This document shows, piece after piece, positions 56,603-64,000 of a stretch of DNA of 64,000 bases. The notes under the pieces are model-generated. The model was given only the letters and a program-made list of their open reading frames with translations. It searched no databases and was not told the DNA's origin. Made by a program: the position numbers and the translations under genes. Position 1 is the first letter of the stretch. Each line of letters begins with the position of its first letter. The DNA comes from an uncultured delta proteobacterium (lineage in GTDB: Bacteria > Desulfobacterota > Binatia > UBA9968), in assembly GCA_963804165.1 (NCBI GenBank), contig CAWDPO010000010.1:192001-256000 (forward strand), given 5' to 3'.

Positions 56603-56923
56603 CTAATAACGATCGCGGCGCGGCGGCCGGCCACCGCCAGCGCCGAAACCGCCGCCGGAGCGCGAGTCGCGGGGTGCCTGCGGCCGCGCTTCGCTGACGA
56701 CGATATTGCGCCCCTCGAAGTCGGTGCCGTTCAACGCGTTGGTCGCCTTTTCAGCTTCTTGATCCGAGCTCATTTCGACGAAGCCGAAACCCTTCGAACG
56801 GCCGCTGAACTTGTCGGTAATGATCCGCGCGCTGACCACTGAGCCATGTTGCGCGAAGTGTTGCTGGAGCCTTTCCTCTGTCACGTTATAGGAAAGGTTC
56901 CCAACGTATAACTTTGCTCCCAT
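56603..56923 (-). CDS. RRM RNA-binding protein with Gly/Arg-rich tail
   Basis: KLYVGNL (RNP2), KGFGFVEM (RNP1); ATG at 56923 with AAGGAGG RBS. Confidence 0.95.
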   Translation of the reverse strand: MGAKLYVGNLSYNVTEERLQQHFAQHGSVVSARIITDKFSGRSKGFGFVEMSSDQEAEKATNALNGTDFEGRNIVVSEARPQAPRDSRSGGGFGAGGGRPPRRDRY

Positions 56924-57092
56924 CTTGGCCCTCCTTGTTGGATCAACGAACAATCATTTGACGGACCCACTTAACCAAAGCGCAAGGCCTCAGACGGGTT
57001 TCATCAGCGGGACCATTCGCTCGGCGCGCTCTTCGGTAACCGGACCCTCGGGAAACGGCGTCAGCCTACAAAAGTCAAACCGCGATTGTCAA
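56924..57092 (-). promoter_or_regulatory. Sigma70 promoter plus ~130-nt structured 5' leader of the RRM gene
   Basis: TTGACA-N18-TAGGCT (57092-57063); leader can pair ACCGAAGAGCGC with GCGCTTTGGT around two small hairpins. Confidence 0.5.
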
Positions 57093-57168: not shown

Positions 57169-57465
57169 ATGGAAATGGACAATTCTTCCGAACCAGCCCG
57201 AGTCCATTTTAAAGTTCGCGGTCGCGTGCAAGGAGTCTATTTTCGCGCGTCAACTGTGCAGCAGGCACAGGAACTCGGATTGACCGGCTGGGTTAGGAAC
57301 TGTGACGATGGTTCGGTGGAGGGCATCGCAGAAGGTCCACGAAGCCGGCTTGAAACACTGATTTCCTGGTGTCGGCAAGGACCGCCGGGCGCCAAAGTCG
57401 CCAACGTCGAAGTCCAATGGCACATGGCCCAAAATGCTTTTCAAAGTTTTTTGATTAAGCGGTGA
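57169..57465 (+). CDS. acyP: Acylphosphatase
   Basis: VRGRVQGVYFR, GWVRN..DGSVE, GPPGAKV. Confidence 0.95.
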   Translation: MEMDNSSEPARVHFKVRGRVQGVYFRASTVQQAQELGLTGWVRNCDDGSVEGIAEGPRSRLETLISWCRQGPPGAKVANVEVQWHMAQNAFQSFLIKR

Positions 57466-57488
57466 CTGATAAATATTTGAACGCGCGG

Positions 57489-57524
57489 TCACTGGTGGGA
57501 GGCGGACTTTCCCCCCACCAGTGA
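57489..57524. terminator. Stem-loop between convergent acyP and the peptide gene
   Basis: TCACTGGTGGG ... CCCACCAGTGA, 11-bp perfect arms, weak U-tract. Confidence 0.6.
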
Positions 57525-57552
57525 AGCGGCGTGTGTGGCTAGGTTACGCGAT

Positions 57553-57687
57553 CTAGTCGCCTGGTTTTTCCGGCTTGGGCTTGGGGGGCGGTTCTTCCTG
57601 CGCGCTCACGGGCGCCGACAGATTGATGATCGAACCGACCAGATTGAGACCGAGAACGATTGCCAATGCCATCATGATTTTCTTCAT
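57553..57687 (-). CDS. 44-aa secreted peptide precursor (signal peptide + QEEPPPKPKPEKPGD)
   Basis: ATG at 57687 with GAGGAGGTG RBS; MKK n-region, hydrophobic h-region, V-S-A cleavage site. Confidence 0.75.
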   Translation of the reverse strand: MKKIMMALAIVLGLNLVGSIINLSAPVSAQEEPPPKPKPEKPGD

Positions 57688-57742
57688 ATGCGTTTCACCT
57701 CCTCTCGCGCAAAAACTTTTCGGCTCTGTTTGACGTGGAGAG

Positions 57743-57759
57743 CGCAAGCCAAATGCCAA
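57743..57759 (-). promoter_or_regulatory. Sigma54 promoter of the peptide gene
   Basis: Minus strand TTGGCATTTGGCTTGCG = TGGCA-N6-TTGC, GG-N10-GC. Confidence 0.75.
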
Positions 57760-58079
57760 AACTTCGATGATGACAGGAGCAAAAATAGGCGATAGAAAAT
57801 GAATACATGGCGGATTGGCGCGGAATCGGTGGAATAATGCTGTTGCAAGTCACCACAACCAAAAACCAAACGAGTTGTTGGCGCGGCTCCAAGCCAATGA
57901 TTTGCAACGATAAACATCAGATTTAGAAATTCCCTACAGTACCGCGGCAAGTTGCAACAGGTAACGTGACTATCATTCGGGCAGATTATGGAAATGTCGC
58001 CAACAGCCGAAGGTTTTCTCTCCCATTCGGAGATTGAACAATTAGGAATAATATTTGCTGTGTTGCATCGGCACCCCTT

Positions 58080-59621
58080 GTGAAGCTCGGAACAAAAATT
58101 ATCCTCCTTGTTGTGCTCACGGTTGCAATGACGATGGCCATCCACGGCTATCTGAGCATTCAGCAAGATCAAGAAAACATTGAGCGCGGCGTGCGCCTTG
58201 GCATGCGCGGTTTCGCGCAAGCCGTGCGGGCGGCCCTCAGAGACCTCTACGCCGATAACGAAAATATCGAAGCGACGCGGGAGTTCGCGATAGCGGTCGC
58301 GCCCCGGGGTAATATTCACGGATTAATTATCTACGACATTAATGCGCAGCCCGTGGCGATTTCACCATCGCTCAACTACCCGGGCGACTTTCCCGAACTG
58401 AATCCCGCACCGATCCTGCGCCTGGATCCGCGTCCGGCGTTGCGCGAAAAGAAGGAAAGCGAAGGATACCTTCGAGACCAGAACGTTTTTATCTATTATC
58501 GTATCGAGCCGATCTATAGCTCTGGGGGTCGCATGACAGGCGCCTTTGTTCTGGCCCGCCACGGCACGGCACTGATTTCCTCGATCGCCGACAGACGCAA
58601 TCGAATAATGATCACAACGTCAGCGCTAATCCTCTTGCTCTCGTTGTTTGTGTGGATCATCGTGCAGCGCAGCGTCGCCCGGCCAATCCATCGCCTCATC
58701 GAGCGCATTCGCGCAGTCGGACGCGGTCATTGGGAGCAGCGTATCGATATTAGCGGTGACGACGAAATCGCCTCCCTGGCGCGCGAATTCAATCTAATGT
58801 CCGAAGAGCTGCAGAATATGTATTCCCGTTTGACGGCGGAGCAACTTGAGAAGCTCAAATTGGAGCAGGACCTGCGCCGCTCGGAACGTTTGGCTTCCGT
58901 CGGGCAGCTCGCCGCGGGGCTCGCTCATGAACTCGGCACGCCGCTCAACATCATCTCCGGACGAGCCGAGCACCTGTTGCGCCGGGCGCGCAGCGTCGAT
59001 GAAATGAGAGACAACTTGCAAATTATCACCTCCCAGAGCGAACGTATCACTGCTATTGTCCGCCAGCTGCTCGATTTTTCCCGGCGCCGGGACCCGCTAT
59101 TTCGTACCGTTGACATCGGCGTATTGTTGAAGAAGGTGACTGACTTACTGGCCCATCAGCTGGAAAAGAAATTGATAAGGGTCGACTTGTCATGCCCCAC
59201 ACCGGCGCCGCAACTTCGCGCCGACGCGGAATTGTTGCAGCAGGTTTTCATGAACCTTTGCGCGAACGCGATCTACGCGCTCGATATCGGCGGCGTGATC
59301 AAAATCCGGGTTGAACCTATGGGGACCAGCCAAGCCGCCGGCAATGCGAACGGCGCGTCCCATGGAGTGCGCGTTATTTTCGAAGACAACGGCGCCGGCA
59401 TCGCCGGTGAGAATCTCGGTCGTATCTTCGATCCTTTTTTCACCACGAAGGATATTGGCGAAGGCAGCGGTCTCGGCCTGTCCGTCGCCTTCGGCATCAT
59501 CAAGGATCACGCGGGAGAGATTCGGGTTGAAAGCGAACAGGGGAAATACACGCGCTTCGTGATCGATCTGCCAGACGCCGCTGCGAAACCGAAAACCGCA
59601 TCGCAACAGATTGCGTCATAA
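58080..59621 (+). CDS. Membrane sensor histidine kinase (TM, periplasmic sensor, TM, HAMP, HisKA, HATPase; NtrB/ZraS-like)
   Basis: RLASVGQLAAGLAHELGTPL, QVFMNLCANA, DNGAGI, IFDPFFTTK, GSGLGL. Confidence 0.93.
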   Translation: MKLGTKIILLVVLTVAMTMAIHGYLSIQQDQENIERGVRLGMRGFAQAVRAALRDLYADNENIEATREFAIAVAPRGNIHGLIIYDINAQPVAISPSLNYPGDFPELNPAPILRLDPRPALREKKESEGYLRDQNVFIYYRIEPIYSSGGRMTGAFVLARHGTALISSIADRRNRIMITTSALILLLSLFVWIIVQRSVARPIHRLIERIRAVGRGHWEQRIDISGDDEIASLAREFNLMSEELQNMYSRLTAEQLEKLKLEQDLRRSERLASVGQLAAGLAHELGTPLNIISGRAEHLLRRARSVDEMRDNLQIITSQSERITAIVRQLLDFSRRRDPLFRTVDIGVLLKKVTDLLAHQLEKKLIRVDLSCPTPAPQLRADAELLQQVFMNLCANAIYALDIGGVIKIRVEPMGTSQAAGNANGASHGVRVIFEDNGAGIAGENLGRIFDPFFTTKDIGEGSGLGLSVAFGIIKDHAGEIRVESEQGKYTRFVIDLPDAAAKPKTASQQIAS

Positions 59622-59798
59622 ATCCTGGATCGGAAGCTCTGGTTATTCATACCCTGCGGGCCGATCGTCGAACCCGCGGGGGGAGCCTCGCGAAGTCTAT
59701 CACTGAATGGCGTTGCGATCGTCCACCCTACTTTGCGTCGCGTCAGTTTTTCCGCATTCATCAGCCTGCACTTTGGCGCCACCGGCACACGCGGCCGG

Positions 59799-60719: not shown

Positions 60720-61541
60720 TCACTTGCCCCAATCCCGCGAATAGCGAAAATCACGGTCGATGGTTCGATGCGACACTTTGGCAATCACCGGCAGGCGTCG
60801 CTTAAATTGTGTAGTCATGATCTGGAGAGCAACTCTATCGATAAACGTTTCAGTAAATCCTAAAGTCATTAGCTCCGGCTTGGTGCAACGCTGATCGACC
60901 ATCATATAGAGAAGCTTGTCCACTTCCCGGTAAGTGAATCCCAACTCTCCCTCGTCGGTTTGACCTACCCAGAGATCGGCTGAGGGCTCCTTTGCGACTA
61001 TCACCGATGGCACGCCGATCGCTTCGGCCAACGCCCAGACCTGCGTCTTGTAAAGATCGCCGAGCGGATTTATCGCCGAAGCCATATCCCCGTACAGCGT
61101 CCCATAGCCGAGCAATAATTCGGTTTTGTTGCTCGTGCCGATCACCAAGCCGTTCCAGTGGGCCGAATGATCGTAGAGTATCGTCATGCGCTCGCGCGCC
61201 ATCTTGTTGCCGCGCCGCCGCGCATCGGCGTCCGGGAAGCGCTCGAAGTAGGCATCGATTTGCGGCGTAATATCGACGACCAGCGATTGGAGGCCGATTT
61301 TCTGTACGACCACCTCGGCATGCGCCAGGCTATCGGGATTGGAACTTTTGTAGGGCATCAAAATAGCGAGCACGTTTTTCGCGCCGAGCGCTTCGGCCGC
61401 CAGCATGGCGCTGAGCGCCGAATCGACGCCGCCGGATAGTCCCACGACGGCTTTGCCCAAGCCGGTCTTGTGCACTTCATTGCGGATAAATCCGGTGAGG
61501 ATTTCGCGCAACAGCGGCGCGTTGGAAGGAATTTGAATCAT
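60720..61541 (-). CDS. nadE: NAD+ synthetase (synthetase subunit)
   Basis: [38 protein letters not shown]. Confidence 0.96.
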
Positions 61542-61566: not shown

Positions 61567-62487
61567 CTAGCGCTTTCGCTTTTTTGACGCTTTGAAGCGT
61601 TGAACTTTCGAACCTTTGAGCTTTTGCGCGAAATACGCCGCTGGCCGCTCGCGAATCCGCATCAACTCGTTGATCGTAAGATCGATGTCCTCATCGCGCA
61701 GCAAGGGCGACATCGTGCGTTTACGCCGAACTGATTCTAAAGCGACTTCCGCGACGATAAAATCTTCCTCATAGTACTTGGCTTTGGCGATACATTGACC
61801 GAAGGGATCGACGACTTCCGAGCCGCCCCAAAACCCCACGCCGTCCTCGAAACCGCAGCGATTACCGTAAATCATGAACAGACTGTAAGTCTCTGCGTAG
61901 GTACGATTGATCATCTCCCAGTAGCGCGCGTTGTCGTCCCGAGCTTGCCCGTCGACGATACCGCGCAGCGGACTCGCCGATGGGCAGAGAACCGCAAGCG
62001 CGCCGTCCAAAGCAGCCAGATAAATCGTCGACGGGTGCCACAGGTCCTCACAGATCAGCAGCGCCAAACGGCCGAATTTCGAATTGAAGACGCGAATCCG
62101 GTCACCTGCGGCGAAATAGCGCTGCTCGTCGAACATGCCGTAGGTCGGCAAGTAGACCTTGCGGTGCGTGTGGCGAATTTCGCCGTCCTCAAAATATACC
62201 GCAGAATTGAAAAACCGATGGTCGGCGCTTTCTTCGACGAGACCGGCGACGAACGGTAACTTGCCGCTTAGCTTCTTCAGCGTTTTCATTTCCGCGGCAT
62301 TCATCGTCAGCGCGACGCTGGGAACCGTGTCGCGAAGATAGTAACCCGTGAGACTCAACTCGGGAAAAAGCAGGAGATCAGCCGCCTCTTTCTCCGCCCG
62401 GCGAATAGTTTGCTCATAAAGACCCATGTTGGCCCCGAGGTCGCCGAGTTTCGGATTTATTTGCGCAATCGCGATGCGAATCGACAC
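61567..62487 (-). CDS. Nitrilase-family (carbon-nitrogen hydrolase) protein; probable glutaminase subunit for NadE
   Basis: GTG at 62487 with GGAGA RBS; [32 protein letters not shown] (E-K-C triad). Confidence 0.9.
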
Positions 62488-62631
62488 AGCTGAGTCTCCA
62501 TTATAGAAACGCCGCAATAAATTCTTAAGAAAGTAACATAGGGGTGAGCTCACTTGCAATTTAGCCGCTGCGCGCCTATTTTTGAGATGAATTCTATTGA
62601 CCAAGGAACTTTGCCGGGTTGTCCAACGTCC

Positions 62632-62856
62632 ATGGATGAAAAAGTTCTTATCTTCGGAAAAGATCTCTGACCGTACACTGCCGGTGCCCGGGAGGCATTC
62701 ACGCGCCGTAAAATTCCTCACGAATATGTCAACGTACTTGAAGACGACCAAGGCCTGGCGCGCATGCTCAAGGTTACCAACGGCCGGCGCCAAGTACCCG
62801 TCATTGTCGAAGCTGGCAAAGTCACCATCGGTTTCGGCGGGTCGTGAGAAGTCTAG
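62632..62856 (+). CDS. Uxx-star-type glutaredoxin-like selenoprotein with two Sec (U13, U72)
   Basis: MDEKVLIFGKDL-U-PYTAGAREAF...GRRQVPVIVEAGKVTIGFGGS-U-EV-stop; TGA at 62668 and 62845, TAG at 62854; hairpins after both TGAs. Confidence 0.85.
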
Positions 62857-62859
62857 CGC

Positions 62860-62874
62860 GCCGGCGGTGTCGGC
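62860..62874 (+). promoter_or_regulatory. Candidate bacterial SECIS element for the C-terminal UGA
   Basis: GCCGGC-GGT-GTCGGC hairpin starting 13 nt after the UGA, with G-G-U apical loop. Confidence 0.55.
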
Positions 62875-62923
62875 CCGATTTGCCAGTCGCCCATCCGCGT
62901 AATCGAACGGTGTAAGGCCGAGC

Positions 62924-64000
62924 GTGACCGAGCCCATCAAGCAGCGAATCACCGATAAGATCAAAGCGGTCTACGGCGCTCATGCGACGTTGACCTCGCT
63001 CGTGCCGCTCGCCGGCGATGCGTCGAGCCGACGTTATTACCGGGCGCATGTGAGCGGCCCCGGCATGCCGTCATCCATTATCGTCATGGAGCTTCCGGCG
63101 GGGAGTTCACTACCGCTATCCAGCGAAGAGCTGGCGATATTCAAGGAAAGTCCCAAGGAACTGCCCTTCTTGAACATGCATCGTTTTCTAAGCCGGACCG
63201 GCGTCAACGTCCCGCAACTCTATGGTCAATGGGAAGAGGAAGGCATTCTATTGCTCGAAGACCTCGGCGATACCGCGCTTTGGGACCGGGTCCAGGGGCT
63301 GTCGGAGAGTGCTGTCCTTGGGTGGTATCAAAAGGCCATCGACGAGCTATTGAATTTACAAATCCGCGGTACGCAGAATCGCGACGTCTCTTGCATCGCT
63401 TTCCAGCAGCGCTTCGATTTTAAGCTCTACATGTGGGAGTTCGCGCATTTCATCGAATGGGGTCTGGAAAAACGTCCGGGCTCGGCCATCAGCAGCGCCG
63501 CGGTCGATCAGTTGCGCAAATCGTTCGCCGTGATCGCCGAACTTCTGGATCGTCAAACGCCCTGTTTGAGCCATCGCGATTACCATAGTTGGAACTTGAT
63601 GATTTGTAACGAAGCGGTCAGGATCATCGATTTTCAAGATGCCTTGATGGCGCCGCCACACTACGATCTCGCTTCCCTCCTCAACGACCGGATCACGGAC
63701 AGCGTCGTTCGGCCGCCGCTCGAAGAGCGGCTTGTTCGTTATTATATCGACCGGAGCCGCGAGCTGAACGGAGGCCTCAACCCGGCCGATGAATTTTTCG
63801 AGATTTACCGTCTGTCGACGATTCAAAGGGACCTGAAAGTCGTCGGCCGTTTCTATTATCTCGATCTCGTGAAGGGCAAGCCGGGCTACATGAAATTCGT
63901 CCCATCGACGGTGCGGCGCCTTAAACGCAATCTCGCCAGCGTCCCGCAAACACAAGCGATACTGAATTTACTGCTCGACAATTTCGAGGCGATGCAATGA
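62924..64000 (+). CDS. amgK: Aminoglycoside-phosphotransferase-fold kinase; probable anomeric MurNAc/GlcNAc kinase
   Basis: LAGDASSRRYYR, LLEDLGD, HRDYHSWNLM, IDFQDA, YDLASLL, QRDLKVVGRF. Confidence 0.75.
   Translation: MTEPIKQRITDKIKAVYGAHATLTSLVPLAGDASSRRYYRAHVSGPGMPSSIIVMELPAGSSLPLSSEELAIFKESPKELPFLNMHRFLSRTGVNVPQLYGQWEEEGILLLEDLGDTALWDRVQGLSESAVLGWYQKAIDELLNLQIRGTQNRDVSCIAFQQRFDFKLYMWEFAHFIEWGLEKRPGSAISSAAVDQLRKSFAVIAELLDRQTPCLSHRDYHSWNLMICNEAVRIIDFQDALMAPPHYDLASLLNDRITDSVVRPPLEERLVRYYIDRSRELNGGLNPADEFFEIYRLSTIQRDLKVVGRFYYLDLVKGKPGYMKFVPSTVRRLKRNLASVPQTQAILNLLLDNFEAMQ

Follow-up and report, generated by a model that had tools for sequence, protein, structure and literature searches.

The 64,000-nt stretch analyzed here (the window) is part of contig CAWDPO010000010.1, below C10, of a 7.5-Mb metagenome-assembled genome (MAG, G000) of an uncultured delta proteobacterium. 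It carries a small open reading frame (ORF) of 44 codons, the micro-ORF, transcribed divergently from the gene of a sensor histidine kinase, and a sigma54-type promoter and palindromic activator sites lie between the two. The micro-ORF, the divergent kinase with PDC and HAMP domains, and an NtrC-type sigma54 activator, whose gene lies on contig C3 in this genome, make up a three-gene module of one family of uncultured soil bacteria, labeled Candidatus Binatia in database records. The features are listed in Table 1.

Table 1. Features of the micro-ORF and kinase locus in the window and of the related locus on contig C3.
Feature	Position	Strand	Details
3' stem-loop	57489..57524	minus	14-bp stem; -36.2 kcal/mol, z -4.67
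Stretch covered by metatranscriptome contigs	57466..57721	minus (strand inferred)	apparent extent of the short transcript
P-type micro-ORF	57553..57687	minus	44 codons + stop; ATG 57687, stop 57553-57555
Mature 15-mer codons	57556..57600	minus	predicted
Signal-peptide codons	57601..57687	minus	predicted
Shine-Dalgarno GGAGGTG	57696..57702	minus	8 nt 5' of ATG
Sigma54 -24/-12 promoter TGGCATTTGGCTTGC	57744..57758	minus	predicted start near 57732
Proximal activator site	57841..57857	none	13/16 matches, ~90 bp 5' of promoter
Middle activator site, degenerate	57922..57938	none	10/16 matches, direct reading
Distal activator site	57943..57959	none	13/16 matches, ~190 bp 5' of promoter
Sensor histidine kinase, 513 amino acids	58080..59621	plus	HAMP, HisKA and HATPase_c domains
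Deletion scar, 178-nt gap	59622..59798	none	relatives hold a ~1.4-kb regulator gene here
C3 half-module	G000 C3:276660-278546 (locus L064:6660-8546)		outside the window; 41-amino-acid lipoprotein precursor and divergent regulator

The micro-ORF product, read directly from the sequence, starts with MKK and a hydrophobic run of about 20 residues, followed by P-V-S-A, the predicted cleavage point, and QEEPPPKPKPEKPGD. The signal peptide was assigned by this reading and by its conservation, and a basic n-region, a hydrophobic h-region, and small residues at -3 and -1, as expected of Sec substrates of signal peptidase I, were all present. Among the 19 sequences of this form, termed P-type, Ala at -1 was invariant and Gln at +1 nearly invariant, and the signal peptide is presumably cleaved at this point. 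The hydrophobic segment AIVLGLN...SAPVS, with an Asn in mid-helix, was kept across genera, and the mature tail was conserved, too (QEEPxPEPKPEKP). Either AGGAGGTG or GGGGGTG precedes the orthologous micro-ORFs as a ribosome-binding site (RBS). The 44-residue product had no match in Pfam or NCBIfam, which places it outside the ZraP, CpxP, and Spy profiles; the MgrB profile did not match it, and a search of the ESM Atlas gave no usable feature-based match. It belongs to none of the known accessory families. A pilin was considered and dropped, as direct reading found no prepilin motif, and the same was done with a precursor of ribosomally synthesized and post-translationally modified peptides, as no gene for a modifying enzyme is present in the neighborhood.

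The profile built from the 19 P-type sequences retrieved 266 protein clusters from public data. Named matches among those listed were all annotated as hypothetical, except for one with the JGI label YceK, and the organism labels, where given, were mostly Candidatus Binatia or "Deltaproteobacteria" MAGs. The mature part was readable in 116 of the 120 matches listed. In these 116 sequences it had a median of 15 residues (range, 13 to 27) and consisted of 33% Pro, 24% Glu, and 13% Lys; Gln was the first mature residue in 103 and Asp or Glu the C-terminal residue in 86 of them. P-type products have no cysteines. The mature peptide was identical between different genera at the loci L004, L005, and L036.

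The distribution of the module was analyzed at two levels, across the phylum and within the family of the window's genome. The sensor region of the kinase (residues 1 to 200) was present in 3 of the 401 genomes sampled across the phylum, and kinase orthologs were found in 44 of the 90 genomes and 14 of the 23 genera of the family; the counts include the unpublished genomes G005, G462, and G459, on which alone no conclusion depends. Among 39 distinct kinase loci examined, 35 had at least 572 nt of upstream DNA, and all 35 carried a divergent micro-ORF with a strong RBS beside the kinase gene (34 found by script, L008 separately). The micro-ORF was of P-type only at 25 loci, of L-type only at 9, and both types were present at one (L038). 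The L-type is a tiny lipoprotein, in which the lipobox LAGC or MAGC is followed by an invariant PE (12/12 sequences); a lipobox of the form L-[AS]-[GA]-C was found in the L-type forms including the paralog on C3. The signal peptides of the lipoprotein forms are ordinary, unlike those of the P-type, and have no Asn in mid-helix. Whole-genome profile searches located the P-type in 29 and the L-type in 17 of the 90 family genomes, with one or both in 40 of the 44 kinase-positive genomes. A further kinase-positive genome, G460, has a third lipoprotein form adjoining a sigma54 promoter, and in the last three the kinase gene sits at a contig edge. Neither micro-ORF was found in the 46 kinase-negative genomes of the family.

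The median ratio of nonsynonymous to synonymous substitution rates (dN/dS) of the P-type was 0.21 in the 97 usable of 171 sequence pairs, the other 74 being saturated at synonymous sites, with a pooled synonymous difference (pS) of 0.71 and nonsynonymous difference (pN) of 0.30. The L-type was less constrained, with a median of 0.32 (16 usable of 36 pairs). The P-type is, on these substitution patterns, under purifying selection, and the 44-codon micro-ORF is a real, conserved gene tightly linked to the kinase. An earlier reading of the window from its letters alone (the preliminary description) had pointed out this ORF, with its strong RBS, a product that is nearly all signal peptide, and a 15-residue tail, and had proposed synteny and dN/dS as checks; both came out in its favor.

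The promoter has the canonical spacing of GG (-24) and GC (-12) in a TGGCA-N6-TTGC context, of which TGGCATTTGGCTTGC is the sole match in the window. In the window by itself this is not significant, as 0.72 matches are expected and at least one occurred in 46 of 100 shuffled sequences, and a stricter pattern ending in W found nothing there, the base after TTGC being G. Similarly, the 9-mer CTGTTGCAA, located at 57840(+) and 57952(-), was not enriched in the window (15 occurrences versus 12.65 expected). Comparison among loci was more informative. TGGCA-N6-TTGC stands upstream of the micro-ORF at 16/16 loci of the genus and at most loci of the family; loci of genus g280 carry CGGCAC variants or lack a match to the pattern used. 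The activator sites, palindromes of the form TGTTGCAA-N-TTGCAACA, lie between the promoter and the kinase start and were centered about 70 to 90, 150, and 170 to 190 bp from the promoter, at fixed distances in 32 loci. In the same 32 loci, sites with at least 11/16 matches numbered 2.4 per locus on average, compared to 0.09 in shuffled sequences. The degenerate middle site of the window occupies the place of the second distal site of the relatives. The promoter and the activator sites are taken as real because they are conserved across loci, the signals in a single window being weak; the near-consensus promoter and the two inverted motifs of the preliminary description, the latter as conserved enhancer sites, are therefore retained.

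As a separate observation on these promoters, L060 (G014:C14, about 465000 to 467700) has two identical sigma54 promoters separated by 1.1 kb, both with activator sites of their own; downstream of the first, and driven by it, is a long P-type micro-ORF, while the second serves an L-type micro-lipoprotein. In G018, a P-type and an L-type micro-ORF apparently lie behind one promoter.

The transcript predicted from this promoter was compared with public RNA data. Seven RNA runs share sequence words with positions 57300 to 58300, and four of those were aligned to the window. Each of the four, rhizosphere metatranscriptomes from two studies, gave one contig of 172 to 195 nt with 100% identity. The contigs were confined to the covered stretch in Table 1, and the kinase and acylphosphatase genes on its two sides were uncovered in all four runs. 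The contigs ended at 57539, 57539, 57502, and 57466, around the stem-loop that lies between the convergent micro-ORF and acylphosphatase gene. This stem-loop, already noticed in the preliminary description, is strong and is not followed by a U-tract. The upstream limit of the contigs is 11 nt short of the predicted start, and a 5' end cannot be located from contigs of this kind. A short, abundant mRNA would be expected to leave such a pattern, with cover in all four runs restricted to the predicted transcript, and the micro-gene is expressed in the rhizosphere. Among loci, the length of the 5' leader ranges between +39 and +104 nt. An Rfam scan of positions 57300 to 58200 gave no match, and a scan for sigma70 promoters and terminators found nothing specific to the micro-ORF.

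The kinase consists of a first transmembrane helix (TM1), a periplasmic PDC/sCache-like domain (about residues 30 to 165), a second transmembrane helix (TM2), and HAMP, HisKA, and HATPase_c domains. Residues 1 to 250 were modeled with AlphaFold2; the model, with a mean predicted local distance difference test score (pLDDT) of 84.9, shows TM1, a long helix, an alpha/beta domain of PDC type, TM2, and HAMP, and its best Foldseek matches were WalK (E 2e-11), the extracellular domain of WalK/YycG, DcuS, and CitA. For the kinase core and the activator, the best NCBIfam matches include ZraS/ZraR and AtoS/AtoC, all below the family cut-offs. In the sensor domain, 13 columns separate the kinases of lipoprotein-only loci from Pro-type kinases. 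An independent lipoprotein-only kinase, that of locus L037, carries the Pro-type residue at 13/13 of them, so the sensor domain does not covary with the peptide type. Prediction of a complex of two copies of kinase residues 1 to 200 with the 44-residue precursor had a score of 0.01 and returned no answer.

In the window no response regulator gene stands beside the kinase, whose end is separated from rsmI by 178 nt, and kinase and regulator do not form one operon there. The preliminary description was right on this point as far as the window goes. In relatives, both in other genera and elsewhere in the same genus, however, the kinase gene is followed by an overlapping gene of about 460 codons for a REC-AAA+-HTH regulator; in G015, for example, the open frame of the regulator overlaps the kinase. 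The ancestral order is ligA, RRM protein, acylphosphatase, the module (micro-ORF, kinase, regulator), and rsmI, and alignment to G015 revealed a clean loss of about 1.4 kb between kinase and rsmI in the window. The sole ortholog of the regulator in the window's genome lies at C3:277164-278546 and is 61 to 75% identical to the regulators of the relatives, the next-best match being 44% identical. From this regulator gene diverges a sigma54 promoter, TGGCATCGCAATTGCG, followed by an L-type micro-gene, and the activator site matches the 17-mer of the proximal site in the window at 16/17 positions. The mature part of the C3 micro-lipoprotein has about 20 residues. No kinase gene is present at the C3 locus, where it has been deleted.

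The C3 locus is syntenic with the site where a second clade of the genus keeps the whole module; in that clade the acylphosphatase-rsmI junction is empty, and the clade closest to the window's kinase has nothing at the C3-type locus. The window's genome has therefore retained the kinase at the old locus and the regulator at the new one, with a micro-gene at either place. The kinase is then not an orphan, as it had been called, but half of a split system with an NtrC-type partner on C3. The H-box region of the kinase and the REC alpha-1 region of the regulator are nearly identical across the clades, which makes pairing of the C10 kinase with the C3 regulator plausible. A chimeric bin was considered as the source of the split and rejected, since the single-copy genes ligA, rsmI, and nadE are not duplicated in the bin and phylogenetic affinity is alike on the two contigs, where a gene from C10 and one from C3 each resemble the two clades of the genus to about the same degree. 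In another genome, G013, the kinase and the regulator are found at the ends of different contigs (L005 on C161 and L079 on C27), with about 680 nt plus 213 nt of unmatched sequence between them, which suggests an insertion or a repeat that broke the assembly.

Targets of the activator were searched for in the whole genome, which has rpoN on contig C38 and 34 matches to the sigma54-activator domain PF00158. Only nine sites in the genome reach at least 13/16 matches to the palindrome, and three of these precede the two micro-gene promoters. These two are the only sigma54-like promoters in the genome with a site of at least 13/16 matches 50 to 330 nt upstream, and regulation of the micro-ORF by this two-component system is therefore well supported. 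Relaxed site thresholds yielded extra candidates at about the chance number. In five other genomes, 7 to 22 palindromes with up to 3 mismatches were counted, compared to 10 to 17 for a reversed-pattern control, so single sites are uninformative. The best of the extra palindromes, at G460:C4, G014:C24, G014:C3, and G015:C5, were discarded, with no convincing sigma54 promoter or micro-ORF beside them, and so were two positions flagged by a crude scan, C23:43205, which is without gene context, and C16:115782, which by our own reading apparently belongs to a kdp-like operon with other repeats. In this region (C16:113338-116100), a sigma54-like promoter accompanied by TTGCAA-rich repeats is found downstream of a gene for an NtrC-type regulator and precedes two tiny hydrophobic ORFs and, as we read it, an apparent kdp operon for potassium transport; it would add a further micro-ORF under sigma54 control.

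Two neighbors of the module in the window are added here. The gene at 56603-56953 (-) encodes a 116-amino-acid RNA-binding protein with an RRM domain and a Gly/Arg-rich tail, which is 83 to 91% identical across the family and the best-conserved neighbor of the module. At 60720-61541 (-) and 61567-62964 (-), a separate 465-codon open frame stands ahead of the NAD synthase gene; relatives align to it only over about the last 320 residues, and its N-terminal part is probably noncoding.

The arrangement was compared with known systems; it resembles modules of the envelope-stress kind, and zraP-zraSR, cpxP-cpxRA, glmY-glrKR, and MgrB-PhoQ come closest to it. In Enterobacteria, zraP encodes a small periplasmic protein, is divergent from an operon for a kinase and an NtrC-type activator, and is driven by that activator from a sigma54 promoter; ZraP is a folded protein of about 140 amino acids of the CpxP/Spy family. 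The likeness to zraP-zraSR, drawn in the preliminary description, is apt: a divergent gene for a small exported product, a sigma54 promoter, and a kinase with an NtrC-type activator are common to both. In contrast to ZraP, the product here is an unstructured tail of 13 to 27 residues without a family match, and the sensor domain is a lineage-specific family with the sparse occurrence in the phylum given above. The cpxP gene is likewise divergent from cpxRA, and CpxP is part of the regulon and modulates the kinase. With CpxP and MgrB the present system shares a very small exported or membrane protein within the regulon of a two-component system, while kinase modulation is a property of theirs and feedback here is proposed by likeness to them; those systems use sigma70 and OmpR-type regulators, in contrast to sigma54 here. 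MgrB, reported to inhibit PhoQ (PMC8404706, PMC10576120), stays in the membrane and needs periplasmic cysteines, which the P-type does not have. DbfQ of Vibrio cholerae, reported to bind the sensor domain of DbfS and to set the output of this kinase (PMC12714742), is also a small Sec-exported product encoded beside a two-component system. It is, however, a PepSY-domain protein of 135 amino acids with a folded binding surface and shares the operon of DbfRS, and the binding to the sensor is DbfQ's.

The small RNA gene glmY, adjoining the kinase-regulator genes glrK-yfhG-glrR, is described with a sigma54 promoter and, over 100 bp upstream of it, three TGTC-N10-GACA sites (PMC3045617). A short sigma54 transcript, three upstream sites, and the standing of apparent main target of the pair are shared with the micro-gene. 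However, glmY is noncoding and has the same orientation as its neighbors, while a selected peptide is encoded divergently here, and the sites differ, TGTTGCAA-N-TTGCAACA replacing the TGT-N-ACA type. PilA with PilS/PilR resembles the module in a small gene activated by sigma54 and an NtrC-type regulator and in a hydrophobic N terminus of the product, the feedback on the kinase being PilA's; PilS, by contrast, has six membrane segments and no periplasmic domain, and PilA is a pilin with a prepilin leader. Unlike in the peptide quorum sensing of Gram-positive bacteria (Agr, Com, Phr), no dedicated export or processing gene stands beside the precursor. Among the entries listed by literature searches, none described the P-type peptides as a family or reported a sigma54 system from Binatia. 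The view that no such system had been described was nevertheless too strong, as small modulators in the periplasm or the membrane that are under the control of two-component systems are known (CpxP, ZraP, MgrB, DbfQ).

On balance, the most likely reading of the micro-protein, which we hold tentatively, is an induced product in the periplasm with an added feedback on the kinase. The kinase would sense a periplasmic cue and presumably phosphorylate the activator, which would bind the three palindromic sites about 70 to 90, 150, and 170 to 190 bp 5' of the promoter and open the latter for a monocistronic mRNA of about 250 nt. Sec would export the product, and cleavage behind the conserved (S/V)-x-A would leave an acidic Pro/Glu/Lys peptide of 13 to 27 residues in the periplasm. 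Of the sigma54-dependent products of the system, the micro-proteins would be the main and possibly the sole one. They most likely act at the periplasmic face of the membrane and, by analogy with CpxP, ZraP, MgrB, and DbfQ, probably feed back on the kinase; such actions would rest on a general acidic and unstructured character and not on a specific sequence.

Several points weigh against this reading. Contact between peptide and kinase is proposed by analogy. A system with the micro-proteins as sole output and with pure feedback as their action would be left without a function, so they would also have to be effectors, or targets were missed by the genome-wide site scan, which was crude. The unusually conserved hydrophobic segment and its mid-helix Asn could mean retention in the membrane. 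That the sensor domain does not covary with the peptide type, a finding from the sensor columns that weakens quorum sensing, counts here as well. The RNA contigs, taken from Logan, carry no strand information, and DNA carry-over is possible. Finally, the genome has a completeness of 81% and a contamination of 5%, and no other of its contigs is as GC-rich as C10 (0.581 versus 0.558 overall).

Next in probability after an induced product with feedback is a purely effector role, in which micro-peptide and micro-lipoprotein constitute the physiological output and leave the kinase unaffected; possible actions are the buffering or sequestering of cations or cationic toxins and a change in the surface properties of the envelope. 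We consider this rather unlikely. In its favor, the two micro-genes have the only sigma54 promoters with strong activator sites in the genome, the transcript is abundant relative to its silent neighbors in the RNA libraries, the peptide has the Pro/Glu/Lys composition and mostly acidic end of the homologs listed, three unrelated tail types occupy one slot, and the sensor does not follow the peptide type. However, free periplasmic peptides of such size and composition have no known function, a partner gene is absent nearby, and a small protein encoded next to its controlling two-component system usually modulates that system as well. A larger step is the autoinduction loop put forward in the preliminary description, by which the exported and probably pyroglutamyl 15-mer would be a self-made signal: once outside the cell it would build up, bind the PDC domain, and switch on its own promoter through the sigma54 activator. 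The half of it that concerns the regulation of the peptide gene stands; the ligand half found no support, and we judge the whole improbable. The topology of the circuit fits, the signal peptidase site and the first mature Gln (in 103 of the 116 homologs listed) are conserved, Pro-rich peptides resist proteases, and the gene is strongly expressed in situ. A diffusible pheromone of Gram-positive style is nevertheless argued against by the lipid-anchored forms, which are unable to diffuse and yet occur under the same regulation in place of the peptide or along with it, by the identical mature peptide in different genera (L004, L005, and L036), which leaves no privacy and no pherotypes, by the absence of an adjacent export or processing gene (the neighbors are ligA, RRM protein, acylphosphatase, rsmI, and nadE), and by the sensor domain that does not covary. 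If the loop were true, it would be a linear-peptide circuit for autoinduction, quorum sensing, or confinement sensing in a diderm, in which the PDC kinase reads how much of the peptide is in the periplasm or outside the cell, and the micro-lipoprotein paralog would be its cell-bound counterpart.

About as doubtful is a function of the hydrophobic N terminus itself, either as an uncleaved anchor in contact with the transmembrane helices of the kinase, in the manner of MgrB-PhoQ or PilA-PilS, or as a released signal-peptide fragment, like the lipoprotein-derived pheromones of enterococci and Listeria. The gene is almost entirely signal peptide, and AIVLGLN...SAPVS with its Asn is kept across genera; there are also parallels in PilS, reported to sense PilA within the membrane under sigma54 and PilR (PMC6058289), and in a lipoprotein-derived pheromone reported from Listeria (PMC4379056). 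The tail, however, is conserved as well (QEEPxPEPKPEKP), the canonical -3/-1 motif with an invariant Ala at -1 argues for normal cleavage, and the lipoprotein forms carry ordinary, different signal peptides without the Asn. Less probable still is a transcript that acts mainly as a small regulatory RNA with coding as a secondary role. A short sigma54 transcript with three upstream activator sites beside a kinase-regulator pair is the layout described for glmY beside glrK-glrR (PMC3045617), and the 3' stem-loop is strong. This is opposed by purifying selection on the peptide (dN/dS 0.21) while synonymous sites are saturated, by the conserved strong RBS, by the variable length of the 5' leader, and by the lack of an Rfam match. 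An induced periplasmic product with feedback on its kinase thus stays the reading that we tentatively prefer.

The tuning of sensor kinases by small proteins is under active study, and nearly all examples are enterobacterial and were found by experiment. Here, a complete compact circuit of sensor, sigma54 activator, DNA sites, and apparent target was defined for an uncultured soil lineage by comparative genomics alone. Few secreted gene products so far linked to a dedicated two-component system are as short as this target, the expression of which is visible in RNA from the rhizosphere. With few bounded parts, namely the kinase, the activator, a promoter region of about 300 bp, and a peptide that can be synthesized, the circuit could be rebuilt in a laboratory host. 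The split arrangement in the window's genome is a natural experiment on the reshuffling of two-component partners.

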